Positions 19,798-60,365 of a DNA stretch of 63,777 nt are shown in pieces. The DNA comes from a virus (lineage: Duplodnaviria > Caudoviricetes). The notes beneath the pieces are model-generated. The model was not told the origin of the DNA. It did no database searches and worked only from the letters and a program-made list of their open reading frames with translations. How positions within the stretch are numbered: position 1 is the first letter of the stretch; each line of letters begins with the position of its first letter. The translations under genes were made by a program, and so were the position numbers. The stretch is taken from IMG/VR virus record IMGVR_UViG_3300025013_000109, positions 1 through 63,777 of that record. One strand, 5' to 3'.

Positions 19798-20115
19798 CTA
19801 TTTAAACACGTACCCGTGCTCGTTTACGATGGTTGCTTTAAAGGGCAGGTCTTCGGGTTTTACCTGGCTGATCTGGTCGATCAGGTACATGTAGCTGCCC
19901 CAGAGTACGCGTTTTTGTCCACCAACTTCAATTTGAAGGTACAGGCACTCTTTTCGCTCGCCTTTCCAGTTAGGGTCGTTTTCTTTGCTTAGTTTGCTGG
20001 CGCGTACTTCGTAATCGAGTACAATAATTTCGGCGCCTTCAATCTTTTCAATCTTGATTTTATCGCCAACAAACCTCCTGTTTGTGGTTACCCCAAGTTC
20101 GCTGAATGACTTCAT
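19798..20115 (-). CDS. DGR-linked ~100-aa protein, homolog of 60060..60365
   Basis: Shares F.GDKIK..KI...EI.V, CL.LQI and PF..TIV motifs with 60060..60365; downstream of RT1. Confidence 0.8.
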   Translation of the reverse strand: MKSFSELGVTTNRRFVGDKIKIEKIEGAEIIVLDYEVRASKLSKENDPNWKGERKECLYLQIEVGGQKRVLWGSYMYLIDQISQVKPEDLPFKATIVNEHGYVFK

Positions 20116-20124
20116 GCAAAGCCA

Positions 20125-20736
20125 TTAAAACAAAAAGGGCTGAAACTGGGCTTCGATGGCTGCAACGTCTTCGGCACGAATTCTGAATCTTTGTGCTACT
20201 TTTAAATCAGAAAACGAATTGATTGCCGTAACTGTTGTTTCGCGTACCTGGTTGGTATAAGCAATAAGGCCTTCCAACTGTGCATTTCCGGAGCCGTTAA
20301 TTAACCTTGCTCTTGTTGCCAATAACGTGAATTTGTTGATCGTAACCGAAAACTCTTTCAGCAGCTTGGCTTTTACCTGGTCGAGCGTTAGGCTTATATC
20401 TTCTCCAACACCTTCGCTGGCACACTTTGCTTTAATGGCTTCAACAAAATTGTTGAAGGCAATAAACTCGGCATTGGTGGCATCTACAATGCCTTTACGC
20501 AGTGCGGCTGTGTCTTCGCCATCGGGGTAATTGGCCTGTATTACCGCATTGATGATACGGGCACGGGTTGCAGGGTTGGTTACACGGTACTGCTCGGCGG
20601 TAATAATCACATTGCGGGGCTGGCCCGTTTGCTCGTCGGTTACTACTTCGGCGCGACGGTCGAAATTGACGTACGAATGACCGGTTTTTAGGTCTTCGAT
20701 AAATACGTCGGCGTTAATTTGTACGTTTTTTTGCAT
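20125..20736 (-). CDS. Hypothetical protein within the DGR1 operon
   Basis: 203 aa ORF overlapping the RT1 stop. Confidence 0.7.
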   Translation of the reverse strand: MQKNVQINADVFIEDLKTGHSYVNFDRRAEVVTDEQTGQPRNVIITAEQYRVTNPATRARIINAVIQANYPDGEDTAALRKGIVDATNAEFIAFNNFVEAIKAKCASEGVGEDISLTLDQVKAKLLKEFSVTINKFTLLATRARLINGSGNAQLEGLIAYTNQVRETTVTAINSFSDLKVAQRFRIRAEDVAAIEAQFQPFLF

Positions 20737-21694
20737 GATTGTCCAATTCTAAAATGTTATAAATTAAATGTCTGGAATCACACCATTTCAGCATTCCCTT
20801 GTACGAGGCAACCGATTTGGCATTGTGCCGTTTCTTTATAAAATTCTTTTTAATCCGCTTCCGGATTCGCGTGTGCGTATGCCTGAAAACATAGCCCACA
20901 TAATCAATGCCCCGTTCGTCGACTTCAAAGATCTGCCAGTTTTTCTTCAGCTCCAGTTCAAGGTTATACCACAAATAATTGCGGACGCGCCACAGTGCCT
21001 GGTGCAGGCTTGGTTTATCGGCGGCCAGAAAAACCATATCGTCGGCATAGCGGTAATAATACCTCACTTTCAGTTCTTCCTTGATGTAATGATCGAGCCG
21101 GTTGACGTAGGTATTCGAAAATATCTGCGAAAGCAGGCCGCCAATGCTTAATCCATCGGTGGTATCGAGTACTTCGTCGATAATTGCCAGGAACCATTTG
21201 TCTTTGATGTAACGCCGCAGCTCTTCTTTAATTCGGTTACACGGCACCGAAGGATAAAACTTCCGGATATCTATTTTCAGGCAATATCTGGTTCCCTCCG
21301 GATCGACGTGCAAGTCGTGTTTGAGCCTTTGATTGAGCAAATGTATGCCGCGATGCTTGATGCTGTTGAACGTGTTTGCAATAAATGAGCGGGTAAGCCG
21401 CTCTTCGATCATGTTTAAAATGGCATGATGCGCAATCCGATCGGGAAAATAGGGCATTTTGGTAATCTCCCTCACTTTACCGGCATCGGCCATCATGGTA
21501 AATGTTTTAGGCTTGCTCGATCGGTACCGGTCTTCGGTGAACAGTTTAATCAGTTCCTGAAGGTTTCCCTCCCTGTTTTTGTCGAATTGTATTACTCCGT
21601 ACGTGTCGGCCTTATTTTTACGGGCTTTCCGTTCGGCTTTGTCGAAATTGGCATACGTTAAAAATTCGTCCCTGATATTTCCTTTTCGTTTCAT
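20714..21694 (-). CDS. DGR reverse transcriptase (RT1)
   Basis: FPDRIAHHA, KIDIRKFYPS, GLSIGGLLSQ (DGR-type SQ), RYADD, IDYVGY; no maturase/endonuclease domain; adjacent TR/VR pair. Confidence 0.95.
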   Translation of the reverse strand: MKRKGNIRDEFLTYANFDKAERKARKNKADTYGVIQFDKNREGNLQELIKLFTEDRYRSSKPKTFTMMADAGKVREITKMPYFPDRIAHHAILNMIEERLTRSFIANTFNSIKHRGIHLLNQRLKHDLHVDPEGTRYCLKIDIRKFYPSVPCNRIKEELRRYIKDKWFLAIIDEVLDTTDGLSIGGLLSQIFSNTYVNRLDHYIKEELKVRYYYRYADDMVFLAADKPSLHQALWRVRNYLWYNLELELKKNWQIFEVDERGIDYVGYVFRHTHTRIRKRIKKNFIKKRHNAKSVASYKGMLKWCDSRHLIYNILELDNHAKKRTN

Positions 21695-21817
21695 ACTTTT
21701 TGTTTCGCTGGTGCATCCGTGCTGCCACCACGCCAGGTTTCAGTTTCCCTACTAACAGGCTTTTGTTTTTGTCGTGTTCCGGCATCCTGCCGGGGCTCTC
21801 ATTCCTTTAATTCCTTG

Positions 21818-21932
21818 GCACGTTAGCTGCTGCCGATGTTCACGTTCGAATTCGAAGGACCGTTGTTCGCATTCGCCGACCCGAGGGCGCAATTGCTACC
21901 GTTATTCAAGTTCGCCCCGAAAAGCACACCGC
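21818..21932 (-). repeat. DGR1 template repeat (TR1)
   Basis: 115 bp ungapped match to 22166..22280; 19 mismatches, all at TR adenines on the - strand; AAC/AAT-rich. Confidence 0.95.
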
Positions 21933-22115
21933 AGAGAATGAGCCGCCCAGCCCCACCCCTACCCTCCCCGCACTTCGACAAGCTCAGTGACCAGGAGGGA
22001 GGAAGAAAGGCTTCGTTTATCTTCATTTTAAAATTCAATTTCATTCAATTCACTTTTTTCAAGTTTTTCGCTTTGCCAGGACTTTCAATTTTGAGGAGCC
22101 CGGCTGCGGTTTCGG

Positions 22116-22133
22116 CCTCGCTGAAACGCGAGG
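22116..22133. promoter_or_regulatory. GC hairpin just downstream of VR1 (candidate DGR target-recognition stem-loop)
   Basis: cctcgc-tgaaac-gcgagg, 16 nt past the target stop codon. Confidence 0.55.
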
Positions 22134-22149
22134 ATTTTTCGACCCCGAT

Positions 22150-23445
22150 TTATCCGGACACGTTAGCACGGAAGCCGCCGCCGATGGACACGTTCGAACT
22201 CGAAGGACCGTAGAACGCACCCGCCGACCCGAGGGCGCAAGCGCTACCGTAAAGCAAGGACGCCCCGAAAAGCACACCGCGTCGCACAGTTCCAGAAGCT
22301 GGTAGGTTGGCGTTCCAATTGTAGGCGCAGCCATAGGTTGTTTCTCCAACTCCTGTATTTACATTTCCATAGAGTGTTCCCGGAAAAATTGTTTTTGCCC
22401 ATCCATCAGTTCGCGGAAGTTCTCCAATCAGTGTGTAAGCATTTTTAAATGCAAAACTGGCATCGCTGTGGTTAGCATCCAGAAGCGCATTGTTATAACA
22501 CACATAAAGAAATGTTTTGCCACCATCGGCAACTGATTGCATTTCGATATCGATTCCAGATATCCATGCCCATAAATTTCCCCACAATAAATTTTTACCC
22601 CGGTAAACCGGTACTTGTGTATTGTATGCCGGACTTGTAAATACGCGGGTGTATATGCCCGTCATGTAACCTTTGGTGTTTATTCCGGAAGTATTGGAAA
22701 GAGCTAACTGCGCTTCGAACATTTTAATTACCGGATAGTAACCGTTGTAGGTATTCCAGTCGGCGCTTGACCAGTTCGATGCTCCCGGTCCATTGGCCAC
22801 CTTTAAATTTTTAGTGCGGTATTCGATATACATCATACAAGCCAGGTACAGGCGGTCGAGATAAGTAAGCGCCAGCCAACTTGCACCCTTGGCTGCTGCT
22901 GCCGTTTCGTAGCCATAGCGCGAAATACTTGTGCGCGGATAGCCTAGACCCCCGGCTGTATTACCCGATCCGGAACCTGCAAAGTTTGCAGTTTCGTTGC
23001 GTATCGAGCGCGATTTGCCTGTAGTGCGGTCGATGGTACAATAATCGGGGCTATCGACAAAGCGTGGCATTTCAATAGCCACGTCGGCGCCATAAGTAAA
23101 TGGCTGTGCACATACAATCCAGCGTTCGTAAACCGGATCGGTGCCACCCAGTATCATCCAGCAGGCGGGGTTATCGATCATCACATCCAGCCCGTCGGAT
23201 CCGTCGAGAACCGAAGCTGATTCATCGGCGTTTTTGGTCCAGTCGGTAGGTTTCAGGTAATTCACAATCTGGCGGCTTTCGTTTACCTTACACGCCCTGA
23301 TCTGGTTGTGAAGTGGTAAACTGGCGTGTAAATCGGCATCGCCAATGAGGTATGGGAACGAGGGGTCGGAAACACTACGGAGCCGTTCGACCCCGTAGAT
23401 GCCTTGTCCCGCTTTCTTTTTTGCCAATATAGGGATGAGATCCAT
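22150..23445 (-). CDS. DGR1 target protein (C-type-lectin/FGE-like C-terminus), likely receptor-binding/tail protein
   Basis: NLLWGNLWAW motif and terminal VR ending GFR; start reassigned to ATG 23445, which overlaps the upstream stop (TAATG). Confidence 0.85.
   Translation of the reverse strand: MDLIPILAKKKAGQGIYGVERLRSVSDPSFPYLIGDADLHASLPLHNQIRACKVNESRQIVNYLKPTDWTKNADESASVLDGSDGLDVMIDNPACWMILGGTDPVYERWIVCAQPFTYGADVAIEMPRFVDSPDYCTIDRTTGKSRSIRNETANFAGSGSGNTAGGLGYPRTSISRYGYETAAAAKGASWLALTYLDRLYLACMMYIEYRTKNLKVANGPGASNWSSADWNTYNGYYPVIKMFEAQLALSNTSGINTKGYMTGIYTRVFTSPAYNTQVPVYRGKNLLWGNLWAWISGIDIEMQSVADGGKTFLYVCYNNALLDANHSDASFAFKNAYTLIGELPRTDGWAKTIFPGTLYGNVNTGVGETTYGCAYNWNANLPASGTVRRGVLFGASLLYGSACALGSAGAFYGPSSSNVSIGGGFRANVSG
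22166..22280 (-). repeat. DGR1 variable repeat (VR1)
   Basis: Encodes C-terminal RGVLFGASLLYGSACALGSAGAFYGPSSSNVSIGGGFRA of the target. Confidence 0.95.
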
Positions 23446-24344
23446 TACAGTTGGGTTAGGGTAAAAGTGAAATCGATGAACCCGCCCGAAGTTGGGGTGA
23501 ACGCTGTGAGGGTTTGAACCCGCAATTTCAGGTCTTTGCTGGCTGCATCGCACACATAGTTCCACACCGGCGAATTCTGTCCGAGAACTGAGGAACTACC
23601 GGCCAACAGCGAATTAAATTTCACGTCAATATAATGACGGCCATTGGTAATGTTTGCCGTGCTATTGGTCATGGCTACATTATCGCCAACAATTCCGGTT
23701 GGCTCGGTGCGGTAAAACCACAGCCTTAGCGTTGCATCGGCCAGGTTAAGCATATCGCTGGCTGCATCAATCTGCATCAGGTATCCACCACGCCCATTGG
23801 CTAAAGCCATATCGGGCAGATTAAGTGATACCGGGGCTCCAACGCTCGAATTGATTGCATCGTTGGCCGCATATTGAACGGTATCTGACGGACGTGTAAG
23901 CCTTACTTCGACAAACGCGGCCTTTGAGCTTGGCAGTGGCGCAGCGCGAAGCTGTGTGTCGGTTAAAGGGCCTGAGACTGGAACTGCGGAAGCACGAAGT
24001 TGGGTGTCGGTGACAGGTCCTGAGACTGGTAATGCGGTTGCACGAAGCTGGGCGTCGGTTAATGCACCGGTTACCGTAATGGCAGCTCCCGGATCTGCCC
24101 CGGGATCGAAAAAAGTAGCGGTAGCTGCATCAAGTTCAGCAAAATTGGCATAAGGAGAGCCATCGGCCTTTAAAAACTCACCAACCAATTTATTGGCAAT
24201 AAACTGTTTTCCATTTCCAGTCAGATAGATGTCAATCCTGGTGCGGTCGGCTGAAGGATCGATGCGAAATTTTCCGGACTGACAAGCACTGTCTGTGGTT
24301 CTGCCAAAGATGAACTTGCCGGATGTTTTTTCGAATATGTACAT
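23445..24344 (-). CDS. Putative virion protein with three 17-aa repeats
   Basis: V(T/S)G(A/P)(L/V)TD(A/T)QLRA repeated three times; first gene after a late-promoter motif. Confidence 0.65.
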   Translation of the reverse strand: MYIFEKTSGKFIFGRTTDSACQSGKFRIDPSADRTRIDIYLTGNGKQFIANKLVGEFLKADGSPYANFAELDAATATFFDPGADPGAAITVTGALTDAQLRATALPVSGPVTDTQLRASAVPVSGPLTDTQLRAAPLPSSKAAFVEVRLTRPSDTVQYAANDAINSSVGAPVSLNLPDMALANGRGGYLMQIDAASDMLNLADATLRLWFYRTEPTGIVGDNVAMTNSTANITNGRHYIDVKFNSLLAGSSSVLGQNSPVWNYVCDAASKDLKLRVQTLTAFTPTSGGFIDFTFTLTQL

Positions 24345-24713
24345 GATAAACTGTTTTAAGTGATTACTTCACGAATATATAACGTGGGCACATGCTGGCA
24401 AAGGACAAAAAAACAGCTTGTAATTTTTGAAAAGTAGTATGGTAATACTTAATTCGGAATTGACCTGCTCACTGCTCATGCTTAAAAATCGGGTTATGTC
24501 GTTTTTACTATTGGCATAAAAGACCCCGATAGCAGGTTGCCAAACCACACATTCAGTATCAGAACATCTAACGCTGAAATTGCTACCGGGGAAAACCTTC
24601 CCTTCAGCAATGTTCTGATATATGATATATGTGTGTGTTTGGCGCTGTAAATATAGAGATAAATGTGAAAAAGAAAACCGGCATTAATAAACTCTGATAT
24701 ATAGATTTTAATC

Positions 24714-25002
24714 TTACACTTTCACTTTATCGATCAGTTCCCAAATCAGATCGAGCTGCATGAATGAATAATGATCCTGAATACCGGCAATTTCAATTTT
24801 TGATTCTATATGTTTGCCATAATCCCAAATCAATTGATTTTTATTGAGTAACAAAATCGCCACCATGAATGTGGCAAGCAGCACGGCACGATCCGGCGCT
24901 CTCGTACTGGTTTTCGGGTTTGGTGATGGAGAACCAAAATTGTGCAGTAATACTCCTGTTTACATTGGCAGCACATACGAATAAAATGTTTTTATCATCC
25001 AT
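24714..25002 (-). pseudogene. Disrupted low-molecular-weight protein tyrosine phosphatase-like gene
   Basis: MDDKNILFVCAANVNRSITAQ (CX5R P-loop); TAA at 24841-24843; the C-terminal part (IQDHYSFMQLDLI) continues in another frame. Confidence 0.7.
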
Positions 25003-25023
25003 TGTTTTTGCGGTTTTACTGAA

Positions 25024-25548
25024 TTAGTATCCTCGTCCCCTAGCCTTATCGTAAGCTTTTGCTGTTGGATTTGTATTCGATCCGGCTGATTGCGAACTTT
25101 TATTTTCCCGTTGTTGTGCACTTTTAGATGAAATTATTTTCTCCCCTTCAGCATCGAACGATTCCAGGTTGATCATGATTACCTGTGATGCTTTCATGGC
25201 ATATTTTTCGGCGAGTAATTCACGAAGGACCTGCAACTGATGATAGAATGTTTTGCTGTACCAGGGCTTTGCATGTCGGCCATTCATTCCGGCAGCAACC
25301 AGTTCGGTTGCTTCTGATTTGGATACCCCATTTCCCACGCCCATATCAACAAACTTGCCGTAATACAAAAATGCAAACTCAATACGCTCCGGATCACCGT
25401 TGGCATTGGTAATGACATGGTGTGCAAAGCTGTTGTATAAAGCATGGCTGTAATTGATATTCAGACGAATGATCTTTTCGAGCCAGGTCTTAATTACAAT
25501 CTCTGCCCATGCTTCGATGGTGAGTGATAGGTTGATGTTATCGGACAT
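25024..25548 (-). CDS. Putative neck/tail-completion protein
   Basis: FAFLYYGKFVDMGVG..KPWYSK motif; position after head-tail genes. Confidence 0.6.
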   Translation of the reverse strand: MSDNINLSLTIEAWAEIVIKTWLEKIIRLNINYSHALYNSFAHHVITNANGDPERIEFAFLYYGKFVDMGVGNGVSKSEATELVAAGMNGRHAKPWYSKTFYHQLQVLRELLAEKYAMKASQVIMINLESFDAEGEKIISSKSAQQRENKSSQSAGSNTNPTAKAYDKARGRGY

Positions 25549-25648
25549 CGTGAAAAAGTTTGCCTTCGACTGCTTCGCGCTCAGGCAACGTAGCTTTGAA
25601 CAATGCGCCGCCCACTGAGCAGCGAAGCGTGTCGAAGTGGGTTGTTAA

Positions 25649-26152
25649 TTAGCTCCAATCGTTTGTATTGTATACTAACCGAGAATCTCCATCGGTTACG
25701 GTGAACGAAAACATGACTCCGTGAAAGTTTACACCAACAGGTCCCACGTTTTGATAAGGAACGCTGGTAAAGTCGAGAAAATCGAGTCCGTTTAATCCTA
25801 ACCTTTTTTCACGGATCATTCGGGAAAGGATTTTAAATCCGTCGGTTTTACAATTCTGTTTGGCCAGTTCTTCAGAATCAAAATCGTTGTAATTCTCAAC
25901 CTTTTCGAGCACATAAAAAACGTAATAAGGCGAATCCAAAAAATTGTCGGAATGTACCATATCTCCCACAGATCCTTCCTCATTGTTATGAATAACCAAT
26001 ACGCGGCCAGTGATATCGGTCTGTTGATTAAGCAACTCTTCCAATCCGGCAATTCCGGAGCAGCGAAAAAAACGATGCACATAATCGGTGTGGCCAATGG
26101 TTTTTAACCGGGTGGCACAGTCGAGCATGTATGTTTTGAAGTTGAAAGCCAT
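25649..26152 (-). CDS. Putative tail terminator-like structural protein
   Basis: Structural operon position; likely start MAFNFK at 26152. Confidence 0.55.
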   Translation of the reverse strand: MAFNFKTYMLDCATRLKTIGHTDYVHRFFRCSGIAGLEELLNQQTDITGRVLVIHNNEEGSVGDMVHSDNFLDSPYYVFYVLEKVENYNDFDSEELAKQNCKTDGFKILSRMIREKRLGLNGLDFLDFTSVPYQNVGPVGVNFHGVMFSFTVTDGDSRLVYNTNDWS

Positions 26153-26243
26153 GATATTGAGTTTTGCCTTCCCCTTCGACACGCTACGCTGCTCAGGGAG
26201 TAGCGCTGGCTGAGCAGCGTAGCGTATCGAAGCCAGAAGTGGG

Positions 26244-27071
26244 TTATTTTTTCACTGGTTTTTGTTTTTCGATCATTCGTTCGAGCAGGTCTAAAACATC
26301 CCATCCCGGTGAGTTGAAAATCTGTTCGTTTTTAGTGACGTCGCCCTGATTAAGATCTGATACCAATTGGATAAAACCTTTTACCGGACTTGCCGGGGCT
26401 TCGGATGAAACGCCTGAAGGCTTAAACACCTGCGGATGAGCTTCGACCATGGCATTGCGGCAACCGGCATAGAAGGTATAAATGGCATAACGTTTATTCA
26501 TTGAAAGCAAACGGAATCGGTTTGCACGGCGCGGATAGACAAAATCATTAAACGGCTGACGACGATCTCCGTTATAATCGGGCCTCATGGGGTGATAATG
26601 CGGTTGCTGCGGACGATACAAAACTGCACAAAGCATATTCAGGTAAAAAACTTTGCGCTGTGATTTGGCGTTATTATATGCAAAAAACTGGCCTTCGGCA
26701 TGAATGAATTCTTTCCACGAAATATTACGGCATTCTTTACATGGACCCCAGTAACGACGAATGCCAATACGGAATGACGGAAACAGATTGACGGTTAACC
26801 TGCAATTTTCGGTCAGGTAATTGACAAATTGAAGAAACCAGGTTAATTCCATGTCGGTTAACCAAAATACTTCTTTTCGTTTTTTGAATGCCCAGTACAC
26901 CTGATCCTTTTCGATTTTCTGAGGTAGCGCCTTAATTCCCGTAAGGTTCAGAAATGCCTTGAGCCGAAAAGTATTTTGGTCGAATCCGTTCCGGAACAGT
27001 TGGCAGATATACAACAACTGTTTACGGGTGAGTTCGTTCCATTTGGGCAGGTGAAGGTTTATTTCGTTCAT
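26244..27071 (-). CDS. Phage structural-module hypothetical protein
   Basis: 275 aa, 4-bp overlap with upstream gene; LCAVLYRP motif. Confidence 0.65.
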   Translation of the reverse strand: MNEINLHLPKWNELTRKQLLYICQLFRNGFDQNTFRLKAFLNLTGIKALPQKIEKDQVYWAFKKRKEVFWLTDMELTWFLQFVNYLTENCRLTVNLFPSFRIGIRRYWGPCKECRNISWKEFIHAEGQFFAYNNAKSQRKVFYLNMLCAVLYRPQQPHYHPMRPDYNGDRRQPFNDFVYPRRANRFRLLSMNKRYAIYTFYAGCRNAMVEAHPQVFKPSGVSSEAPASPVKGFIQLVSDLNQGDVTKNEQIFNSPGWDVLDLLERMIEKQKPVKK

Positions 27072-27970
27072 CCGGTTATTCCTCCAATAAAAAAGCCGTA
27101 AGCATCGCCATCGTCATCGGTAGCAGTGGCATTGTCAAAAGGGGCTTCGTAGGCGTTGTCGGCATAGGTTGTATAGGTATCGAGGTTATTTCGCAAATAC
27201 GAGAGCGCAACACTTAATGCGGTAAGATATTTATTGAGCAAAAACGAATGATCGCCCACCGGGTCTACTGATGCCTGAAAATGAATTTCTGCTTTTAGTG
27301 CCAATGCCTGCTGAATAAGCGGTTTAACAGCGATATCGTTTCCGTCACGTAATTCGGTCAGAAATTCGGCGCTGAATACGTTGGTAAACGTGGTTAGTTC
27401 CTCGAAGTTAATGTGCCTTTTTAGATCGACAAAGCGGCGACGACTGCAGCTGATATCAATGAACTGATCGAACACTGAAGCTGAAGGAATCAAACTTCCG
27501 GTATTGATGCAGGATTTGTTCCAGGAGCTATAAGTTGCCACATTTTGTTCGAGGTAATACAACAGCCGGTCTAAGCCATCGTTGGCAGCCTGGAGGCAGG
27601 AATCTTTCAGATCTCGGACGCGCTCCATGCTGGCAGGCGCCTGATTGGGATTACTGACGATGCCAAAACCTGATCCGGTGGCCACCAGGTTAAACTGCGG
27701 AATGCTTTCGAGAATGGTTAGGTTGGCCAGTACTGGTTTGAGCTTCAAGAGCAGCGATTCATAAATTTCAGATTCAGGATAGATAACCACGTCTGACCCA
27801 CCGTCCGAAACAAGGAGCAATCCTTCGTATAGTTGTTCAACCACTTCTTCGCCCAGGTATTTCGGCAGGTATTTAAAGAATGCCCGGATCTCGAATGGTT
27901 CGTATTTTGAGCCGTCGGTTATTGAATTTAGCGGCAAATATTCCTTGATGTTGTCGATGGTAAGTATCAT
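27068..27970 (-). CDS. Putative head-tail adaptor
   Basis: 300 aa directly after portal; GFGIVSNPNQAPASMERV motif. Confidence 0.6.
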   Translation of the reverse strand: MILTIDNIKEYLPLNSITDGSKYEPFEIRAFFKYLPKYLGEEVVEQLYEGLLLVSDGGSDVVIYPESEIYESLLLKLKPVLANLTILESIPQFNLVATGSGFGIVSNPNQAPASMERVRDLKDSCLQAANDGLDRLLYYLEQNVATYSSWNKSCINTGSLIPSASVFDQFIDISCSRRRFVDLKRHINFEELTTFTNVFSAEFLTELRDGNDIAVKPLIQQALALKAEIHFQASVDPVGDHSFLLNKYLTALSVALSYLRNNLDTYTTYADNAYEAPFDNATATDDDGDAYGFFIGGITG

Positions 27971-51386: not shown

Positions 51387-51504
51387 CTTAATTTTAGCTT
51401 CCTGATCATTGAGCAGTGCCGGATTCTGTCAAGGGTAGCTGGGTGGAGCAGCTTCGTTCCCCTTGACTTTTCCGGGATGCGATCAATAACTTTGCGCAAT
51501 TAAG
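51387..51504 (+). promoter_or_regulatory. Hairpin, Frpo-like element F (compact copy)
   Basis: attgagcagtgccgga..gtcaaggg / cccTTGacttttccgggatgcgatcaaTAACTTTG, consensus TTG-21-TAnnTTTG. Confidence 0.65.
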
Positions 51505-51688
51505 TTTCAAGTCTCTCCGCTGCTTCAGTAAGCCCTGATTTTGTTCGCTCAATGAGTTCGTTGTATTCATCAACAGGTACGATCGCAAATTCGCAGTAAG
51601 GCTTGTTTGCTCCATCTTCAATCAGCTGGAGCGTAATAATCCTTTGTTTTGAATTGCATGATAATAATTCTCCAAATTGGGTGCTCAT
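51500..51688 (-). CDS. Hypothetical protein
   Basis: 62 aa ORF with A-rich start context. Confidence 0.5.
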   Translation of the reverse strand: MSTQFGELLSCNSKQRIITLQLIEDGANKPYCEFAIVPVDEYNELIERTKSGLTEAAERLET

Positions 51689-51689
51689 T

Positions 51690-52232
51690 TTATTAGTTTT
51701 TTATTGTTTTTTACAAAATTGTTAAATAGTTTTTTGGGTTACTTTTTATCACTTTTCTAATTTTTTGAACATTTTTTAATATTATTCGATTCAAAAAATC
51801 TATTGATTATTAAAAATTAATAAGCTGACATTGTTTTATTTGCTGTTTTTGATCGTTTTTCGGGCAAAAAAAATATTTTTTTTTTCAGAAGGTCTTTTTT
51901 TGTCCTTTCTCTATCCCGCGTTCCCGCGACTATCCGCATCGGATTAACACATTAATTTTCAACACCTTATTTTTATTAAAAGTTGGGGCACGGCTAAAAA
52001 CGTCCGTCCCGCCGTGACCCAGCGTGACCCAATTTTTAGTAATTTTTAGAGCGTGACCCAGCGTGACCCAGCGTGCCCGCAACACAGATAGAGAGATTAT
52101 TGGTTTTTTTATCATTATTATTATCCTTTATCGGTCTGGTTTTCAATGGCATGAGTTTTGAAAATTCGTTTTACTCTAATTTTTTGAGAGCGTGGGGCGC
52201 GGGGTGCGGGAACGCGGGAACGCGGGAACACC
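51690..52232. other. Putative replication origin
   Basis: AT-rich tract, four cgtgaccca iterons (52013..52070), inverted tcccgcgttcccgc (51915) / gcgggaac x3 (52206..52229); directly downstream of primase-helicase. Confidence 0.6.
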
Positions 52233-52322
52233 CTTTTGACTGTCAGTTGCTTTTTTTATTATTTTTTTCCTTGCACTGAGCTTGTCGAAGTGACCGTTGC
52301 TTGATTATGGAAATGTCCGGCT

Positions 52323-55300
52323 TCAGTATGGCAACCCATCTCCTTTTCCATTCGGATACATCTGCAATTGCAAACTGACGGCCTGTTGTTCGGGCGATGG
52401 TGGCTTCGCGCTCTCCATCTGGCTCGAACTACCCAAATCAATACCCAGCTTCTCGTAGTCCAACGCAATGGCGCTGGTGCGTTTCGATTCTTCGAACATG
52501 GTCGAAATTACCCTACCGCTTCCATCGTCGGCCAGATTGCGTATTTCGTTCTGCCATGTGAATGTGGTATGCTTTACCGCTCCCAGATAGGCTGGGTGAT
52601 CTTTCAGGTAGTTCTGGAGGTTGTTCATTTTCAAATGTTCCTGTATACCTACCTTATCCCGGTATTTGGGATGGATCACTTCCAAACGAACAAACAATAC
52701 TCTCTTTGGCCCTTCTTCAAAAGTCTTGATACTGCTGTTCTTTTGCCCTTCGCGAATGGTGATATCGTCGAGCAATTCAATCTTGTATTCCTTTCCACGG
52801 ATCAATCCATTGCGGGTATCTTCGGTGAGTTGTACAAACGTATCGAAGAACACGGCCAAGCGGTTCGAACTGGTAATGCTTTCGCTCTGGTGGATCAGCT
52901 GCTTTCGTGCAATCTGGTAAAACTCCTTGTAAGTGAATGGTAATTCCAGTCCGGGAATATGCTCTTCGAATAATTTCACCATGGCCAGAAACAGTGAAAT
53001 AGTATTCAATACGCGGTTTTGAAATCCGGAATGATCGTCGATTAAATCTTTTCGAAGTTCCTTTTGCACAATGCGAAGTTTGTTCTGGTAATGATCTCTA
53101 ACAATGGTGCGGCATTTCAATACTTCTACCAGTATCTCTGTAAGCCCTTCCTTCTCCCAGCGTTTCAGGAGTTGGAAATTGGCAATCTCGTTATCGCTCC
53201 ACAATTCTCTTTTTTGTACACTCAGTAGAACTGCTCTATTGCCAAGTGATGCATCATCACGTTCCGGAGCTTCCTGCCCCAACAAAATCGGAACGGCATT
53301 CACCTGGCTAACATCAAGCGCCATTCCTTGGGCGCCTTGCCGTTTGGTTTTTCCTTCACCGTCGTAAATACTGGCTTTAATTCCCTGAAACTTAATATCA
53401 GATATCTGCTGGTCGTTGTATTCTTCCATGATGACCGGAGCATCCCGGTAACGCTGGAGCATAGTAAAGAATGCGGCATCGGTTCCGGAGTTTAGGTTAA
53501 ACATCGGCGCATCGGGATGAATATACAGTGCACGGATCGATTGTGCCAATTGCGATTTTCCGCACTCTGTAGGGCCGATAAAAAACAGAGTGGTAAATAA
53601 CCGGTCAATCTTGAAAATGTCGCTCCGGAAGGCGCACATAATAGCCATAAGAACCGTCCAGCATCCATTGTCGTTGTATTTATATACTTCGCGCACCAGG
53701 GCAGCCCAGTCCTTGAAATTGACGTTTTTGTTTTCGCGGTAAATAAAAAAACGGTCGAGTGCAAACTGATCTTCATCCTTTCGAACGTCCTTATAGATGA
53801 CCGATATGGATGGCGAATAAAACGTGGTATCACCGTGCTCGATGAGCCCAAGTTCGTCCATGTATTTGATCTTGTTTTCGGCAAATACCGCATTACTGAA
53901 GGCATAGAAATCTTCGTTCTGCTGACCGAAAATGGTTAGTTCGTAGGCTACCGGGAACTGAAGCGCAATCGAGTCAAGAATGGTATCCAAATGAAATACT
54001 TTGGCATTCCGGAGCAGGTAAGGACCCTGACGAAATAGAAACTTTTTGAATGCCCCAAATTCAATCATTTCGTTGCTGGGGATCTCCACGTATTTCGACG
54101 AGCGCAAATCGGCATGGTTAAGTTTGCAGATGCGTTTATTCTTCAGCGGATCGTCGGAGAATACCTGAAACTGAGGTTCCATGTAGAAGTTACCAACCTT
54201 GGTCAGGGTGCCATGTTCGGTAGCAAATACATAGAATATCTTTTTGCCGTCTTTATTCTGGGCTGCAAAGTGATTGTATTTATTGAAGAACTTCTGATCG
54301 ACGTAATCGGGTAGTTTCTCAATCGAAAAAACGTAATGCTCATCGTCGATCATGATTTCCTCATTGCGCTGCTGTACCTTATTCTTTACCTTGCTCAGGA
54401 AAGGTTTCAGCACTTGCGCAAAATCGGCTTTCGAAAGACCGAAACGCTTGGCAATTTCGGCAGTCTTAATCGATATCGTTGTATTGTCCAGCTTACTCAG
54501 GAATTCGGCAGCCGTTTCAACAGCTTCTTTCTTCGAATCCGGATCATAAGCTTTCACACTTTCGGCCAGATAGTCAAAATAAAAGGTAGAGAACGACACG
54601 TATTCCTGATCATTTCCATACCGGTCGCCACAATTTAACGAAACTGCAAATCCGTTCTCGGCCAGAAACTTCATTTGCTTGACCTGCCGTTGAATTTTAA
54701 TAAGTTCTTCCGGAGATACTCCTGAGCCTGCGCGAATTGATGCAGAATGTTCGTAGTCAAACTCTTCGGCAAAAACTAAATTCTTAGTTATACCTGAAAG
54801 TTTTCCAATCTGTACGGCGGTCAATAATCCGGAGATAACAATCGAATTTGTTTCAAGATCCGATCCGGTATTGGCAAAAGCGGTTTCTTTTGAAGTGTAG
54901 ATAAATACCTGGTCTTTTTCGCGGATGGCTGTTTCGTTCACAATCATTCCGAATAGTTCGTCAGCCTTTTCTTCCTTGAAAATTCCGGCTTCTACCTTTT
55001 TGCGGTCGATACCGAATTTGTTGGCAACTTCCGAAAAGTAAGTTTCACGGGTAACCAGATCAGGAACTTTCTTAACAGTATCCAGTAACTCATTGATCAG
55101 CTTTCCTTTTTCGGCAGGTTTTTGCTCAATGTCTTTTGCGGCCAAATCGCACATCAGCAAAATAAAATCTTTCTCATTATCTTCAATCCAACGGTACAGT
55201 TCGTCGCGGCTTTTTCCTTTGGCAAACGTGTCGGGATCTTCACCTGTTGGCAATAGTGCCACATACACATTCAGCCCTTCGGCAATACAGATATCGATGC

Positions 55301-56258
55301 CTTTCACTGCTGCTTTCAAGCCTGCGCCGTCGCCATCGAACAGGATAGTCAGGTTACTGGTAAACCGGCGGATCAGCCGGGCATGTTCAACCGTTAAAGC
55401 GGTTCCCGAAGTGCAAATAGTATTGGTCAGTCCTTGTTTATGAAAGCGGATCACATCGGTATTGCCTTCAACCAGGTATGCCTTGCCCTCTTTTACGATG
55501 GCCGCTTTGGCCTGAAACAAACCGTACAATAACCGGCCCTTATGGAACAATTCAGTTTCCGGAGAATTAAGGTATTTGGAGTCGTTTTTACCCGGATTCG
55601 GGTCGAGTATACGTCCGGTAAAGCCAACCACATGCCCCATCAGATCGAAATACGGGAATATCACCCGATCGCGGAAGCGGTCGAAGTATTTACCGTTATC
55701 GCTTTTGCTTAATAAACCGGCTTTATGCAATTGCTGCGGATTATATCCCAGCGAACTCATGTATTCCAGTAATCCGCCCCAGGCAGTGGCAATACTTCCC
55801 AATTCAAATTTTGCCAGATCCATCCGGTCAAAATCGCGATCTTTCAAATAATTGATAGCCTGTCCGTGGTTTTTCAGGTTGTCGGCGTAAAATGTGGCTG
55901 CTACACGGTTCATCAGGAACATCGTATCGCGCTCACTCCGCTGCTGAAGTTCATCAGCGGTCATTTCAACCTTCGGAATCTCGACATGGTATTTTTTAGC
56001 CACGTATTCAATCGCTTCCGGATAAGTCATAACTTCATGCTCCATCACAAAGCTGATGGCATTACCTGCCTTTCCGCAGCCAAAGCATTTAAAAATACCC
56101 TTGGCCGGGCTGACGATCATTGACGGGGTTTTCTCGTTATGAAAAGGGCATACGCCAAGGTAATTTACGCCTTTCTTCTTCAGGTTCACAAATTCGGAAA
56201 CCACTTCGGTAATATTGGCGGCTGACAGTACTTTCTGGATAGTATCTTGTGGAATCAT
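52323..56258 (-). CDS. DNA primase (CHC2 zinc finger + TOPRIM) fused to a P-loop helicase-like domain
   Basis: CPFHNEKTPS..CFGC, KYLNSPET, VEGNTD, FDGDGAG; Walker A GPTECGKS, Walker B IMEEY. Confidence 0.9.
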   Translation of the reverse strand: MIPQDTIQKVLSAANITEVVSEFVNLKKKGVNYLGVCPFHNEKTPSMIVSPAKGIFKCFGCGKAGNAISFVMEHEVMTYPEAIEYVAKKYHVEIPKVEMTADELQQRSERDTMFLMNRVAATFYADNLKNHGQAINYLKDRDFDRMDLAKFELGSIATAWGGLLEYMSSLGYNPQQLHKAGLLSKSDNGKYFDRFRDRVIFPYFDLMGHVVGFTGRILDPNPGKNDSKYLNSPETELFHKGRLLYGLFQAKAAIVKEGKAYLVEGNTDVIRFHKQGLTNTICTSGTALTVEHARLIRRFTSNLTILFDGDGAGLKAAVKGIDICIAEGLNVYVALLPTGEDPDTFAKGKSRDELYRWIEDNEKDFILLMCDLAAKDIEQKPAEKGKLINELLDTVKKVPDLVTRETYFSEVANKFGIDRKKVEAGIFKEEKADELFGMIVNETAIREKDQVFIYTSKETAFANTGSDLETNSIVISGLLTAVQIGKLSGITKNLVFAEEFDYEHSASIRAGSGVSPEELIKIQRQVKQMKFLAENGFAVSLNCGDRYGNDQEYVSFSTFYFDYLAESVKAYDPDSKKEAVETAAEFLSKLDNTTISIKTAEIAKRFGLSKADFAQVLKPFLSKVKNKVQQRNEEIMIDDEHYVFSIEKLPDYVDQKFFNKYNHFAAQNKDGKKIFYVFATEHGTLTKVGNFYMEPQFQVFSDDPLKNKRICKLNHADLRSSKYVEIPSNEMIEFGAFKKFLFRQGPYLLRNAKVFHLDTILDSIALQFPVAYELTIFGQQNEDFYAFSNAVFAENKIKYMDELGLIEHGDTTFYSPSISVIYKDVRKDEDQFALDRFFIYRENKNVNFKDWAALVREVYKYNDNGCWTVLMAIMCAFRSDIFKIDRLFTTLFFIGPTECGKSQLAQSIRALYIHPDAPMFNLNSGTDAAFFTMLQRYRDAPVIMEEYNDQQISDIKFQGIKASIYDGEGKTKRQGAQGMALDVSQVNAVPILLGQEAPERDDASLGNRAVLLSVQKRELWSDNEIANFQLLKRWEKEGLTEILVEVLKCRTIVRDHYQNKLRIVQKELRKDLIDDHSGFQNRVLNTISLFLAMVKLFEEHIPGLELPFTYKEFYQIARKQLIHQSESITSSNRLAVFFDTFVQLTEDTRNGLIRGKEYKIELLDDITIREGQKNSSIKTFEEGPKRVLFVRLEVIHPKYRDKVGIQEHLKMNNLQNYLKDHPAYLGAVKHTTFTWQNEIRNLADDGSGRVISTMFEESKRTSAIALDYEKLGIDLGSSSQMESAKPPSPEQQAVSLQLQMYPNGKGDGLPY

Positions 56259-56316
56259 TCGGTTTGGATATTGTGTGTTACGGGTTATTTGGTTTAACTT
56301 TTAAAATTGACTGTTT

Positions 56317-57039
56317 TTATAGCCTGTATAAATATTCTGTTGACATTGGAATTTCTGTTATTCCTGACATATAAATCATTCGATTACAATCCCTGTCAAA
56401 AAAAACAACATTTCTTCTTGGCGTAATATATTTGGTATATATCTTGATTTTATTCCCTCTAGCATCATACATTTTTTTAATTGTTTCCCTGAAGCTATCT
56501 GATTTTGAATTGCCAATGTAGCATTCAAAGCAAATTGTTGTTGTTTTACAGAGTATAAATACAGGCTGTCTGGAACCACATATTTCACAAGTCCTAATTG
56601 CCAATTCGGTTCCCCAAAAACAGTTTATAGTGTCTATTTTAGATTTATTCTGTCTGGTAGTTTCTTTGCCTTTTTCCCAACATTGAAAAGCCGTTAAGCC
56701 TGATTCAATCACTTCTCCAGTTGCTATATTAAGCTGAAGTATGGGTTTTACTTCTAAACCGGAAATAACATAAAACATGCGACTAAAAACATTAAGTAAC
56801 CATTTTTCGAACCTATATTGAATTCCGTTAATGGTATTGCCTTTTTTAGTAAATAGGTATTGTTTTAAGTATGTTGAGAACTGCATTTCACGTATTTCGA
56901 ATGGAATACTTAAAAAGTAAAATGTCAATATCCCGATTGATAAACTATCTGAATTGCATTCAAAATAGGGCTCATGCGTAAAATGCCGTTCTCTAAACCC
57001 ATTTGTATGGCTAAGAATTACCCAATTAATCTGGTTCAT
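56317..57039 (-). CDS. AT-rich hypothetical protein with CxxC motifs
   Basis: 240 aa, CEIC..CFEC; composition differs from neighbours. Confidence 0.55.
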   Translation of the reverse strand: MNQINWVILSHTNGFRERHFTHEPYFECNSDSLSIGILTFYFLSIPFEIREMQFSTYLKQYLFTKKGNTINGIQYRFEKWLLNVFSRMFYVISGLEVKPILQLNIATGEVIESGLTAFQCWEKGKETTRQNKSKIDTINCFWGTELAIRTCEICGSRQPVFILCKTTTICFECYIGNSKSDSFRETIKKMYDARGNKIKIYTKYITPRRNVVFFDRDCNRMIYMSGITEIPMSTEYLYRL

Positions 57040-57051
57040 TTTCTTATAGTG

Positions 57052-57384
57052 TTAATCCTTGTTATCCGTAGTTTTCACCTTTTTAAACAGAAAAAAAGCA
57101 ATCATGCTATCCTCCTCCAGATAAGGGTATTTTTGTTTCAGGTGGCGGCTGGTCCATGCGGCATCGTGGCCGTAAGTAATCTCACAAATCAGGTTGCTCA
57201 TTGTGCCGAGTGGGTATCTGAAAAAATCGCCACGTATCACCTTTGTTTCGTTTTTACCGTCAACAATCACCATTTCAGTGGGATTCTCGGCAATATCAAT
57301 CAGGTCTTTTTGTGGCGCTGGAAATGCCAGAAAAAACGTTGCGGTATCGGGGATTTGTGCTTCAATGCGTTTGGGTTCGGTCAT
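57052..57384 (-). CDS. Hypothetical protein
   Basis: 110 aa co-oriented ORF. Confidence 0.6.
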   Translation of the reverse strand: MTEPKRIEAQIPDTATFFLAFPAPQKDLIDIAENPTEMVIVDGKNETKVIRGDFFRYPLGTMSNLICEITYGHDAAWTSRHLKQKYPYLEEDSMIAFFLFKKVKTTDNKD

Positions 57385-57397
57385 TTTATATCTCTAA

Positions 57398-58135
57398 TTA
57401 TAATAGTGTGTATTGCACTCCGTAATTGTAATCCCTGCTTAACTCCTCCAGTGCTTTCATTCCCTTTGCCATTGTTGGTGAGTTCATCGAACCAGCCATT
57501 TCGGGAGTTACCTCAATCGTTTTGCTTGTTTGCTCCAGCTCCAATTTAAAGCCTGCTGCTTTTATTTTTCGGTTCAGGTAATACTTGCGATCATAAGTTT
57601 CGAGGCTTTTAACTGGCGGCATTAATTCAAAAGCCTTAAACAGGGTTTCTTTTTCCCATCCTTTTACCAACTCAAAAACTGCCGTCTGGATCCGTACATA
57701 TTTAAAAGTCTTCCTGGGCAAAATGGTGATCGATTTCAACCCAAATGTTTTCAGGTACCGGAGTCGAACGTCTGAATCGGAAATGGTGAATAATGGCATC
57801 AGGGCAATAATGCGATCCGACATTTTCATACACTCCTGAAGGATATAGTATCCAAGTCGTAATCCTTTCAAATTAAGGTCTTCCGGGACTCTAAACGCAT
57901 ACTTCATCGAGAAAGGCGGGTTCATGATGATACAATCATATCGCGATGGATCCAGCGTGAAAAAATTATCGGGAGCGGTTACCTGAAAATCTTCCAAAAA
58001 TTTCAGGATATTTCCTTCACCGGGAGTTGGCTCCAATATGGTTACGGTTTCTTTTGGAATCAAACTACACATGTATTCGGCAACTGCTGCAGGTGTTTGG
58101 AATTCGGCTCCGATTTCAAATTTGGTTTGGGTCAT
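57398..58135 (-). CDS. Amino (N6-adenine type) DNA methyltransferase
   Basis: FQTP, ILEPTPGEGNI, IIMNPPF motifs. Confidence 0.85.
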   Translation of the reverse strand: MTQTKFEIGAEFQTPAAVAEYMCSLIPKETVTILEPTPGEGNILKFLEDFQVTAPDNFFTLDPSRYDCIIMNPPFSMKYAFRVPEDLNLKGLRLGYYILQECMKMSDRIIALMPLFTISDSDVRLRYLKTFGLKSITILPRKTFKYVRIQTAVFELVKGWEKETLFKAFELMPPVKSLETYDRKYYLNRKIKAAGFKLELEQTSKTIEVTPEMAGSMNSPTMAKGMKALEELSRDYNYGVQYTLL

Positions 58136-58162
58136 AAATCGATGGATTGAAGGATTGAATTA

Positions 58163-58915
58163 TTAAAGGATTGATTGCGGCCTGCCGGTGGTTGACAACA
58201 CTTTAACTTTCACCACCCAAACCCACGGGTTTTGCTCCCAGCTTTCGGGTCCGTTAATTTTACCCCACAGAGATTGAAAGGAAGTGATAGCCTGGAGAAA
58301 ACCGGATTTATCGTCTGGATTATTATAATTTTTAAACCTCCAGTTGATCGTAAAAAATCTTGTTACACCTTCAGCAATCGCGTCTTTCTCCGTAACATCC
58401 TGCAACCGTTCCACCTTTATTTCTTCAATCTGTAACCAAATTCGGGCGGCGGATTTGGGCATAAACCGGGGCGACTTCCATTTCACTTCTTTGGCCAAAG
58501 CTTCGTCGTGCCACTGACAGGCGGTTTCGCCTTTCATATCATCGTTCGGGTAAAAACTCCAGTGAAAACTGTCGGCAAAATAGCTGTAAGTTGTTTCCGG
58601 CTCATACTTGCCCAATGTGCAGGCGAATTTTTCCCGCACCCAAAGCACATCACCCGGTTGACCGTAAGGGCATTCTATGGGTTCAACGCAATAGCCTGGG
58701 CTTTCAATAATTGAATTTGAATTTTTATCAAAAATAAATGGCTCTTTGGGTTGTGGTTTTACAATTCTCCTGGTCAGGGTTTTCCGGCCTTCCAGATTTG
58801 CCTGCACCATTGGGGTACTGTAGATGATTGGTTTTGAAGCCCCACCCCAACCCTCCCCAAACGGGGAGGGAGCCGGAACCGCTTCGTTTAACATTTTTGT
58901 TTTTTGCATGATCAT
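58163..58915 (-). CDS. ASCH/PUA-like phage protein
   Basis: GRKTLTRR, CPYGQPGDVLWVRE, FMPKSAARIWL, SWEQNPWVWV; in-frame REP near N-terminus. Confidence 0.8.
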   Translation of the reverse strand: MIMQKTKMLNEAVPAPSPFGEGWGGASKPIIYSTPMVQANLEGRKTLTRRIVKPQPKEPFIFDKNSNSIIESPGYCVEPIECPYGQPGDVLWVREKFACTLGKYEPETTYSYFADSFHWSFYPNDDMKGETACQWHDEALAKEVKWKSPRFMPKSAARIWLQIEEIKVERLQDVTEKDAIAEGVTRFFTINWRFKNYNNPDDKSGFLQAITSFQSLWGKINGPESWEQNPWVWVVKVKVLSTTGRPQSIL

Positions 58916-58979
58916 AGATTTATTTTATTCAATGCGACACCCCCTCCGTTTGCCTGCCTGTCCGGTAGGCAGGGAGGGG

Positions 58980-59993
58980 TTAGGGGAGGCTTTTCGGCCA
59001 TTCGTGCCATTCCTTCCCATCAAGCAGATCACCGGCAGCTTTGCGGCCAACTTTAGCATAAACCATACGATGATCAGTTATGCCTTTTAAAATCGAAAGC
59101 GGATATTTTTTTACATCTCCTATATTGGCCGATACCCATTCCCCCCACTGCTTAAAGAAAAACGGCACTCCGGCTTTCTGGCATTGATCTCGGATCGTTC
59201 TAACCCAATCGGGGTGCATGGGCCGGGCCTTGGGTCCCGATTCACCTCCACAGATTACCCAATCGAGTCCTTTTTCAATGACATTATTATCGTGCGTAAT
59301 TGAATTATTATCAAGCGAATCAATAGCATGAATTGAACTATCTGCAATCCAGGCTAAATCCACCGGCCCCAGCATCGGCTCAATGCTCACAAACCGTTTG
59401 GCGGCAGGTATCTGGAGTAAGATTGGGATTCGTTTATTGGCTTCCTCCTGATTTTCGGCGGTAACTCCGAGCCATAGGTTTGGAAAATTGGCGGCAACAT
59501 TACTATTCTTAAGCCAGGAGAAAAACTTCGCCATGCTTTCGGGACGTTTGGTAAGAACGACGAAAATATGAGTTGGTTTGTCGTGGATAACCTGAAAAAC
59601 CAACTTTTTAAATTCGTGTGAAACTGATTCGTGAAACAGGTCGCCCATAGAGCATACGAAGATCATGCGTGGAGTTTTCCATTTAAAGGGGATAAGAAGC
59701 TGCTCCTGACGAAAAATCGTATGGCCGTTCCATGAAGTTTGTTTGTTATTTTGATCTGGAAACAGGACGCATTTGTAGTCAAGGCTTACTGACTGATTGG
59801 GCATTGAAGCCAAACGTACAGCCATTCGTTCGGCATAGCAATTGTCGCATCCTGGCGATACTTTGCTACAACCAACAATCGGGTTCCATGTTTCGGGTTT
59901 GTAGCCTGGCATATTGAGCCAGGAGATTTTATGCAGTTTGCCGCGTTGTCCGGCTTCAATCTGATCGTGGTAATGTTCTTTGGTCGCTGACAT
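58980..59993 (-). CDS. DUF5131 / Gp37Gp68-family protein
   Basis: WNPIVGCSKVSPGCDNCYA, FVCSMGDLFH, WVICGGESG, PFFFKQWG. Confidence 0.9.
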   Translation of the reverse strand: MSATKEHYHDQIEAGQRGKLHKISWLNMPGYKPETWNPIVGCSKVSPGCDNCYAERMAVRLASMPNQSVSLDYKCVLFPDQNNKQTSWNGHTIFRQEQLLIPFKWKTPRMIFVCSMGDLFHESVSHEFKKLVFQVIHDKPTHIFVVLTKRPESMAKFFSWLKNSNVAANFPNLWLGVTAENQEEANKRIPILLQIPAAKRFVSIEPMLGPVDLAWIADSSIHAIDSLDNNSITHDNNVIEKGLDWVICGGESGPKARPMHPDWVRTIRDQCQKAGVPFFFKQWGEWVSANIGDVKKYPLSILKGITDHRMVYAKVGRKAAGDLLDGKEWHEWPKSLP

Positions 59994-60059
59994 GATTTTA
60001 AAATTTACTATTTTGTTATTTACTATTTACTATTTGTTGTTTGGGTGAGAGAGGGGGCA

Positions 60060-60365
60060 TTAGGTAAATAAGTATCTCTCATTTTCTTCAACTATTGTGG
60101 TGGTAAAAGGGAATCCGGTTTCCGGAATCTTCTGAATCACTTCAATCAAGCCGGTTGATCCGGTAAAAACAACATGTTTTCGCTGATCAAATGATATTTG
60201 CAAACACAAACATTTACCTGATCCTCGCTCTTTAAATACTTTCGAGTCTTCAATTCTGAAATGATGGACCACAATTTCACGGTTCATAATCTTCGACATT
60301 TTAATCTTGTCTCCTTCAAAAGCCTGGCTTTCGACCTTGATATTGAACTGGCTAAACGTGTTCAT
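60060..60365 (-). CDS. DGR-linked ~100-aa protein, homolog of 19798..20115
   Basis: Overlaps the RT2 stop; motif similarity to 19798..20115. Confidence 0.8.
   Translation of the reverse strand: MNTFSQFNIKVESQAFEGDKIKMSKIMNREIVVHHFRIEDSKVFKERGSGKCLCLQISFDQRKHVVFTGSTGLIEVIQKIPETGFPFTTTIVEENERYLFT

Follow-up and report, generated by a model that had tools for sequence, protein, structure and literature searches.

The subject of this article is acc, a gene for a protein of about 100 residues that lies downstream of the reverse transcriptase (RT) gene in each of two diversity-generating retroelements (DGRs). Both DGRs are carried by the IMG/VR virus record IMGVR_UViG_3300025013_000109 (Duplodnaviria; Caudoviricetes), all 63,777 nucleotides of which were analyzed and are referred to below as the window. 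We regard acc as probably an RT-bound, nucleic-acid-binding subunit of a DGR lineage that lacks the accessory protein Avd, and not as a positional copy of Avd. The two acc copies are homologous, the gene is adjacent to RT in viruses infecting bacteria and in viruses infecting archaea, natural RT-acc fusions exist, and structure prediction yields a confident beta-barrel model.

Both RT loci are genuine DGRs, because the mismatches between template repeat (TR) and variable repeat (VR) fall at TR adenines beside an RT with an RVT_1 domain (Table 1). This is the case for 19 of 20 mismatches in cassette 1, and for 17 of 17 (tgtA) and 16 of 16 (tgtB) in cassette 2. Cassette 1 is located in the tail module and cassette 2 in the replication/early module. 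In cassette 2 the start of acc2 overlaps the stop of RT2 by 14 nt, and in cassette 1 a single additional open reading frame (ORF), orfX, keeps RT1 and acc1 apart. The original prediction, made from the letters of the sequence, was that the same ~100-aa gene follows both RTs. The ORFs are as it described, with orfX intervening in cassette 1, and acc is the sole gene besides RT that is common to both cassettes. Its remark that the two neighborhoods are otherwise unrelated needs correction: they are DGR cassettes within a single prophage, with RTs that are 48% identical.

The alignment of acc1 with acc2 that had been predicted over their length is equally real, with 36/101 residues identical (36%), 54/101 positives, and an E value of 4e-16 from end to end. 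A search with the acc profile found these two copies only in the whole assembly. Neither matches a Pfam family at E<=0.1. The single PHROG match of acc2, covering residues 2-100 of 101, is to a family of unknown function (phrog_19665), and acc1 matches nothing in PHROG at E<=0.01. A word-indexed search returned 301 homologues for acc2 and 29 for acc1, nearly all of them 99-105 aa long. When a profile built from 37 members (A1) was searched against 1.84 billion representatives, 851 representative clusters were recovered at E<=1e-3, of which 393 reached E<=1e-10.

The family is uniform in size (96-105 aa, nearly all ~100 aa) and near-neutral to mildly basic, with a mean isoelectric point (pI) of 8.3 +/- 0.8 across 37 members. 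Existing annotation offers little direction: among the 120 homologues listed, seven carry source names, of which six are "hypothetical protein" and one, from JGI, is "stress-induced morphogen." Similarly, a Pfam scan of 137 members hit 16 families, each in one member only and none in common. Full-text literature searches, whose coverage leaves out most subscription journals, found no paper describing acc.

A first scan of IMG/VR placed relatives of acc2 (47-97% identity) in 35 loci, with an RT directly upstream in all 32 that could be evaluated, the other three being cut by the contig end. Scans with other single proteins gave one locus for acc1, two for P0152, and none for P0232. A motif scan (pattern FxGDKIKxxxI, followed by a hidden Markov model search), which is a sample biased to acc2-like members, gave at least 119 loci. 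Among the 119 listed, acc was present in 74, with RT directly upstream on the same strand in 71, cut at the locus end in two, and without an RT in one (L119). Pooling brought together 154 listed IMG/VR loci, and a near-full acc was present in 103 of these. With duplicates removed, they contain 77 distinct acc sequences, which form 36 clusters at 70% identity; 75 of the sequences directly follow an RT on their own strand, one is not evaluable, and one is without RT.

Beyond these loci, acc was found in three of 400 other sampled genomes of the phylum Bacteroidota; in each, an RT lies upstream and has 46-52% identity to RT2. The only hits in the phage collection of GenBank are two viruses of archaea, namely, ANMV-1 and Methanosarcinales virus vir525. 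Their gene order is target-TR-RT-acc, matching the cassettes of the window, with a TR/VR pair upstream, and acc is the very next gene after the DGR RT, separated from it by 2 nt in ANMV-1 and overlapping it by 8 nt in vir525. Compared with the window, these RTs are 39-43% identical and the acc proteins 31-37%, and the latter match the acc profile at E about 1e-22. The expectation that the family travels with DGR-type RTs was therefore well placed, in IMG/VR as in the Bacteroidota genomes and the two archaeal viruses. In addition, RT and acc distances co-vary (Pearson 0.83, 45 pairs; reached by 0 of 999 permutations), as is expected for jointly inherited genes. One IMG/VR locus, L051, shows two acc-profile matches, 3-392 and 1921-2232 (+), 1.5 kb apart with an RT gene between them, and may represent two adjacent cassettes.

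The junction between the two genes is also characteristic. In 64 of the 71 loci listed, the ATG of acc overlaps the 3' end of RT by 1-23 nt, most commonly by 14 nt (32 loci), 4 nt (18), or 8 nt (8). Overlaps of this kind are typical of translationally coupled partners, and RT and acc may well be coupled in this way. In at least three sequence groups the two are joined into a natural single polypeptide of 411-439 aa: P0208 (411 aa) and P0302 (439 aa); P0288 with four further 420-aa sequences, drawn from ENA, JGI, and Logan; and P0299, P0300, and P0301 (415-416 aa). Each fusion comprises a complete RT and a complete acc, with Pfam RVT_1 over the N-terminal part and acc as the last ~100 residues. 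The acc part starts only a few residues past the conserved C-terminal RT motif, and the acc N-terminus therefore adjoins the RT C-terminus. Group II intron RTs have a C-terminal DNA-binding (D) domain, a nucleic-acid-binding module that follows the thumb; RT-acc fusions would have the same placement, a likeness of architecture alone for which we claim no homology.

Table 1. Positions, strands, and supporting matches of the features discussed (positions are those of the window unless another record is named)
Feature	Position	Strand	Remarks
DGR1 target, tail protein, 471 aa	22150..23565	-	phrog_5302 tail protein E 1.4e-48; VR 22163-22280
TR of cassette 1	21815..21932	-	repeat D1
RT1, DGR-type reverse transcriptase	20714..21694	-	PF00078 E 4.6e-15; phrog_1423 E 6.7e-93
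orfX, 203 aa	20125..20736	-	between RT1 and acc1; acidic, pI 5.6
acc1, 105 aa	19798..20115	-	paralogue of acc2; acc profile E 3.9e-41
tgtB, target gene, 154 aa	61971..62435	-	phrog_11581 E 1.6e-26; VR 62052-62129
tgtA, target gene, 135 aa	61558..61965	-	phrog_11581 E 3.7e-24; VR 61639-61716
TR of cassette 2	61445..61522	-	repeat family D1
RT2, DGR-type reverse transcriptase	60352..61425	-	PF00078 (RVT_1) E 6.9e-18; phrog_1423 E 1.4e-133
acc2, 101 aa	60060..60365	-	phrog_19665 E 8.7e-11
Tape measure protein gene	13773-17993
Primase-containing protein, 1311 aa	52323-56258
RT-acc gap ORF, L052	1228-1566		in L052
RT-acc gap ORF, L053	3670-4011		in L053
RT-acc gap ORF, L048	1791-2153	-	in L048
RT-acc gap ORF, L049	1151-1468		in L049
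RT-acc gap ORF, L050	1779-2090	-	in L050
cr55_1 RT with C-terminal extension, 441 aa	2917-4242		in L170, MT774376.1

An AlphaFold2 model of acc2, made from a 137-sequence alignment, reached a predicted local distance difference test score (pLDDT) of 90.6 and a predicted TM-score (pTM) of 0.77. Beta structure predominates, five to six strands accompanying one main helix of seven residues (strands 30-40, 51-59, and 62-68, helix 71-77, strands 87-94 and 97-100), in keeping with the beta-rich character that had been predicted from the sequences. The order strand-strand-strand-helix-strand-strand is that of the oligonucleotide/oligosaccharide-binding (OB) fold. In an exhaustive VIA-align search with residues 24-101, the top 50 matches were mostly OB nucleic-acid binders. 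The best was the RuvBL2 OB domain (Z 6.4, root-mean-square deviation [rmsd] 3.2, 68 aligned), and the list includes Rim1 (Z 5.6), bacterial, plastid, and mitochondrial proteins that bind single-stranded DNA (SSBs; Z 5.1-5.5), the PRD1 SSB P12 (Z 4.2), and, further, PriB, editosome OB proteins, HIN domains, Teb1, CST, and RPA. The predicted acc fold thus resembles OB-fold binders of single-stranded DNA (ssDNA), such as SSB, PriB, RPA, and Teb1/CST, in its strand-helix order and its size, and these are among its best structural matches. The Teb1/CST OB proteins work beside a reverse transcriptase, telomerase.

Among predicted viral structures (BFVD), only two matches to the acc2 model were significant and both are annotated as RTs (rank 1, E 5e-6, TMq 0.74; rank 2, E 2.4e-4, TMq 0.61). 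Rank 8 is the RT of the crAss-like phage cr7_1 (E 0.011, rmsd 1.5 over 77 columns), and viral SSBs are found at ranks 9, 30, 36, 40, and 44 (E 0.01-0.1).

The SSB matches raise the question of whether acc acts once reverse transcription is over, coating or protecting the single-stranded cDNA and handing it to the VR or shielding it from host nucleases, with RT catalysis unaffected. Among solved structures, those nearest in fold bind ssDNA and are of the SSB/PriB/RPA type, and viral SSBs recur in the BFVD list; an Atlas neighbor cluster with Phi29_Phage_SSB on 44% of its members (score 0.93) can serve as a lead only. However, fold likeness at Z 4-6 does not establish ssDNA binding, and a generic SSB would need neither fusion to an RT nor translational coupling with one, so that we consider a purely post-synthesis role distinctly unlikely.

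Any small protein encoded beside a DGR RT, and expected to bind both the RT and nucleic acid, invites comparison with the accessory variability determinant, Avd, of BPP-1 (PF05635, the four-helix-bundle family 23S_rRNA_IVP). PF05635 has no match at E<=0.1 in acc1, acc2, orfX, or any cassette ORF scanned, and none at E<=0.05 among 137 members of the acc family. When the whole assembly was searched in six frames with PF05635, 18 matches reached E<=1 and 14 of them passed the cut-off; none lies on C92, the contig of the window. As had been predicted, neither cassette has an Avd, and acc occurs where Avd is absent. Whereas Avd is described as a pentameric helical barrel, acc is a predicted beta-barrel in whose model the helix-bundle fold is not seen. 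The acc gene comes after RT, whereas avd lies between target and TR.

The bRT-Avd-RNA structure, as described in bioRxiv 10.1101/2023.10.23.563531, has Avd in contact with the N-terminal extension of bRT, the RT of BPP-1, and with a stem-loop of the spacer RNA; the same account gives bRT as being without extra DNA- or RNA-binding subdomains and as inactive without Avd. Because Avd contacts the N-terminal extension of bRT and acc is located at, or fused to, the RT C-terminus, we do not regard acc as a positional copy of Avd.

In the mechanism that we propose, acc, as an OB-like beta-barrel of ~100 residues, would be co-translated with RT from the overlapping start codon and would dock at or near the RT C-terminus, on the thumb side. 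It would bind single-stranded nucleic acid, whether in the form of the TR-RNA scaffold or of nascent adenine-mutagenized cDNA, and would supply an extra nucleic-acid-binding surface, as Avd does in the Bordetella phage system. Mutagenic retrohoming might then require acc.

Several observations weigh against this proposal and should be kept in mind. The fold scores are modest (Z 4-6.4, where a Z under 8 may reflect merely a common arrangement), and sequence identity to the VIA-align matches is 2-16% in ranks 1-30. Foldseek found nothing in the PDB for the acc2 model at E<=1e-3, and the acc sequence profile had 0 matches at E<=10 among all PDB chains. Because no chain reaches Z 8, the OB-like fold is likely but not proven. 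In addition, acc is less basic (pI 8.3) than Avd, for which the available text of Wu et al. 2018 (PMC5758913) gives an average of 9.5. The IMG/VR loci mostly represent one cassette lineage (tgtB-tgtA-TR-RT-acc), so that the adjacency counts are not independent, and for this reason the distant RT-acc cases carry more weight than the IMG/VR counts. In L119 the acc gene (3403-3714, -) has no RT within 7 kb upstream, and in L103 (4956-5375, -) acc follows an RT remnant of only 140 aa; both look like decayed cassettes in which acc has outlasted RT.

The related RTs without acc are a further point on the same side. The closest RTs to RT2 in the phage collection are crAss-like and 50-60% identical to it. 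Among 124 phage records with an RT2-like RT (E<=1e-20), a tblastn match to acc2 (E<=10) was obtained only in the two archaeal viruses. Similarly, the acc profile was not significant (best E 1.1) in five loci whose RTs are up to 60% identical to RT2, namely, those of cr55_1, cr60_1, Perkons, Versailles, and vir215. Four of these five phages show no trace of acc, the other being cr55_1, with an RT extension that aligns weakly with acc. In the crAss-like cr60_1 a holin gene follows RT, and the ORFs that overlap the RT end in Versailles (142 aa), vir215 (138 aa), and Perkons (449 aa) are all unrelated to acc. Since acc is absent or undetectable beside many related RTs, it cannot, as far as such searches go, be a general requirement of Avd-less DGRs.

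Could acc then be a passenger, that is, an unrelated small phage protein or regulator that stands beside RT only through movement of the cassette as a block? The predominance of one lineage (with adjacency that is partly inheritance), the many related RTs that lack acc, and the copy without RT in L119 would all fit. Nevertheless, RT and acc stay paired even where acc identity has fallen to 31-37%, in viruses of bacteria and of archaea alike, and the target genes that accompany them vary (tail proteins and small phrog_11581 proteins). Repeated in-frame fusion to RT and start-stop overlaps would be unexpected of a passenger, and we find this explanation very hard to credit.

The acc-free loci bear equally on the stronger form of the original prediction, in which acc is a true functional replacement for Avd that activates the RT and tethers it to the DGR RNA stem-loop, with cDNA synthesis absolutely dependent on it. 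The absence of Avd from both cassettes and from the contig, the standing of acc as the sole gene besides RT in both, and its tight linkage and fusion to RT all speak for such a role, as does the reported inactivity of the BPP-1 bRT without Avd (bioRxiv 10.1101/2023.10.23.563531). However, the fold class differs (beta-barrel against helix bundle, with no PF05635 match), acc follows the RT C-terminus in the fusions where Avd is described at the bRT N-terminal extension, and the RTs of the four loci that show no trace of acc either work without it or use something else. We therefore retain from that prediction the OB-like predicted fold and the linkage to RT, to which the fusions can be added. 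A full replacement of Avd, from which acc differs in being non-homologous and C-terminal, and of which four of five related-RT phages show no trace, seems unlikely to us. We continue to prefer an RT-bound subunit at the C-terminal side.

The crAss-like phages may nonetheless carry something comparable. Their RTs (cr55_1 and IMG/VR loci L175-L230) bear a C-terminal extension of about 90-110 aa, which in large crAss-like contigs is 32-36% identical to that of cr55_1. In hhalign, a single crAss-like extension aligned with acc at Prob 13.6% (E 0.002, 31 columns), and a 12-sequence alignment of extensions at Prob 27% (E 6.6e-4, 66 colinear columns), which is a weak match. The model of the extension (pLDDT 71, core 80-88) has strands 46-54, 59-65, and 68-74, helix 77-84, and strand 90-93, an acc-like order. 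Its best PDB matches are small barrels that include the same RuvBL2, Rim1, and SSB entries (Z<=4.8), mixed with Mop and ribosomal-protein barrels. On account of the 66-column alignment, the strand order, and the structural match to cr7_1, it is plausible but unproven that the extension is a fused, diverged acc-like domain.

A wider reading is that Avd-less DGRs are not accessory-free and have an OB-fold module at the RT C-terminus, encoded by a gene of its own that overlaps RT (acc) or built into the RT as a C-terminal extension. This would concern about a quarter of all DGRs, the group that is dominant in gut Bacteroidota and in crAss-like phages, and we offer it as a tentative possibility, with more doubt than conviction.

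How does this agree with published classifications? The available text of Wu et al. 2018 (PMC5758913) lists the accessory classes Avd, HRDC, MSL, and CH1, with PAG1-4 as tenuous candidates; its "Architecture A" is TR-RT without an accessory gene, and its lineage 3 lacks avd. The crAssphage LMMB cassette is likewise described without an accessory gene or avd (PMC7290462). The cassettes of the window resemble lineage 3 and architecture A, as described, in their target-TR-RT order, the lack of avd, and an association with Bacteroidota hosts and their phages, and RT1 and RT2 appear to belong to lineage 3. They differ in that a conserved gene follows the RT where the published description has no accessory gene. 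CH1 and PAG1-4 are, similarly, hypothetical genes, small and conserved, that flank Avd-less DGRs in Bacteroides and its relatives (PMC5758913). By its published description, CH1 differs in being 160-169 aa long and acidic (pI 4.7), against ~100 aa and a pI of ~8 for acc. It may be that acc is one of PAG1-4; otherwise it is probably a previously undescribed accessory module of DGRs.

ANMV-1 deserves a separate comment. Its DGR was the first from an archaeal virus (Paul et al. 2015, PMC4372165), and the legend of Fig. 1b in that article names an "Avd" arrow for it. The sole annotated ORF between target and RT (L044, KP703175.1) encodes 64 aa at 4678-4872, overlaps the TR at 4663-4780, and has no PF05635 match. 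The arrow may not denote a real Avd homologue.

The cassettes hold further genes of note. Wherever there is a gap between RT and acc, a small conserved ORF fills it (6 of 6 cassettes; Table 1). In the window this is orfX, which has no match in Pfam or PHROG. Over the first 110 aa from its N-terminus it shows 44-53% identity to the intervening ORFs of L052 (E 1e-30) and L053 (E 6e-42); its links to those of L048 and L050 are weaker, and the intervening ORFs of the three Bacteroidota genomes are only weakly related (E 1e-3 to 2e-4). On these similarities, orfX could be a second accessory gene of acc1-type cassettes. As for the targets, DGR2 diversifies two tandem and very small proteins of phrog_11581, a family without assigned function, outside the tail module, which is unusual for a DGR target.

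The window corresponds to contig C92:21959-85735 (minus strand) of a 5.0-Mb assembly of 105 contigs, and its minus strand holds 67 of 74 non-overlapping ORFs of at least 70 aa. Alongside the tape measure and primase genes of Table 1, it carries genes for tail proteins, a head maturation protease, an endolysin, and several DNA methyltransferases, and on this basis we take it for a prophage or a contig of phage origin. The host is probably a member of the Bacteroidota, because the acc homologues with source names stem from Paludibacter and Prolixibacteraceae bins.

Two neighbors of cassette 1 can be mentioned. Directly downstream of acc1, between DGR1 and the tape measure gene, 18797-19678 (-) codes for a fusion of an epsilon-like 3'-5' exonuclease (RNase_T, E 6.7e-12) with a BRCT domain (E 3e-6). 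On the other side, three tandem 48-nt repeats (23925-24068, 71-73% identity) within ORF 23445-24344 encode the repeated peptide "LTDTQLRA..PVSGP" in a protein that sits just upstream of the DGR1 target.

The question of how DGRs manage without Avd has stood open since Wu et al. 2018 (PMC5758913), and the mechanistic and structural DGR work that we found in the literature is all on the bRT-Avd complex. In acc this question gains a concrete candidate, a conserved OB-like protein linked to the RT and in some cases fused to it, which is small and lends itself readily to expression, deletion, and co-purification. The annotation of Avd-less cassettes in phage and gut metagenomes should change, given 851 representative acc clusters, and acc may also matter to DGR-based directed-evolution tools, which as described now depend on bRT and Avd. 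If the wider reading given above is true, there would be a second, mechanistically distinct class of DGR ribonucleoprotein, common to viruses of bacteria and archaea.

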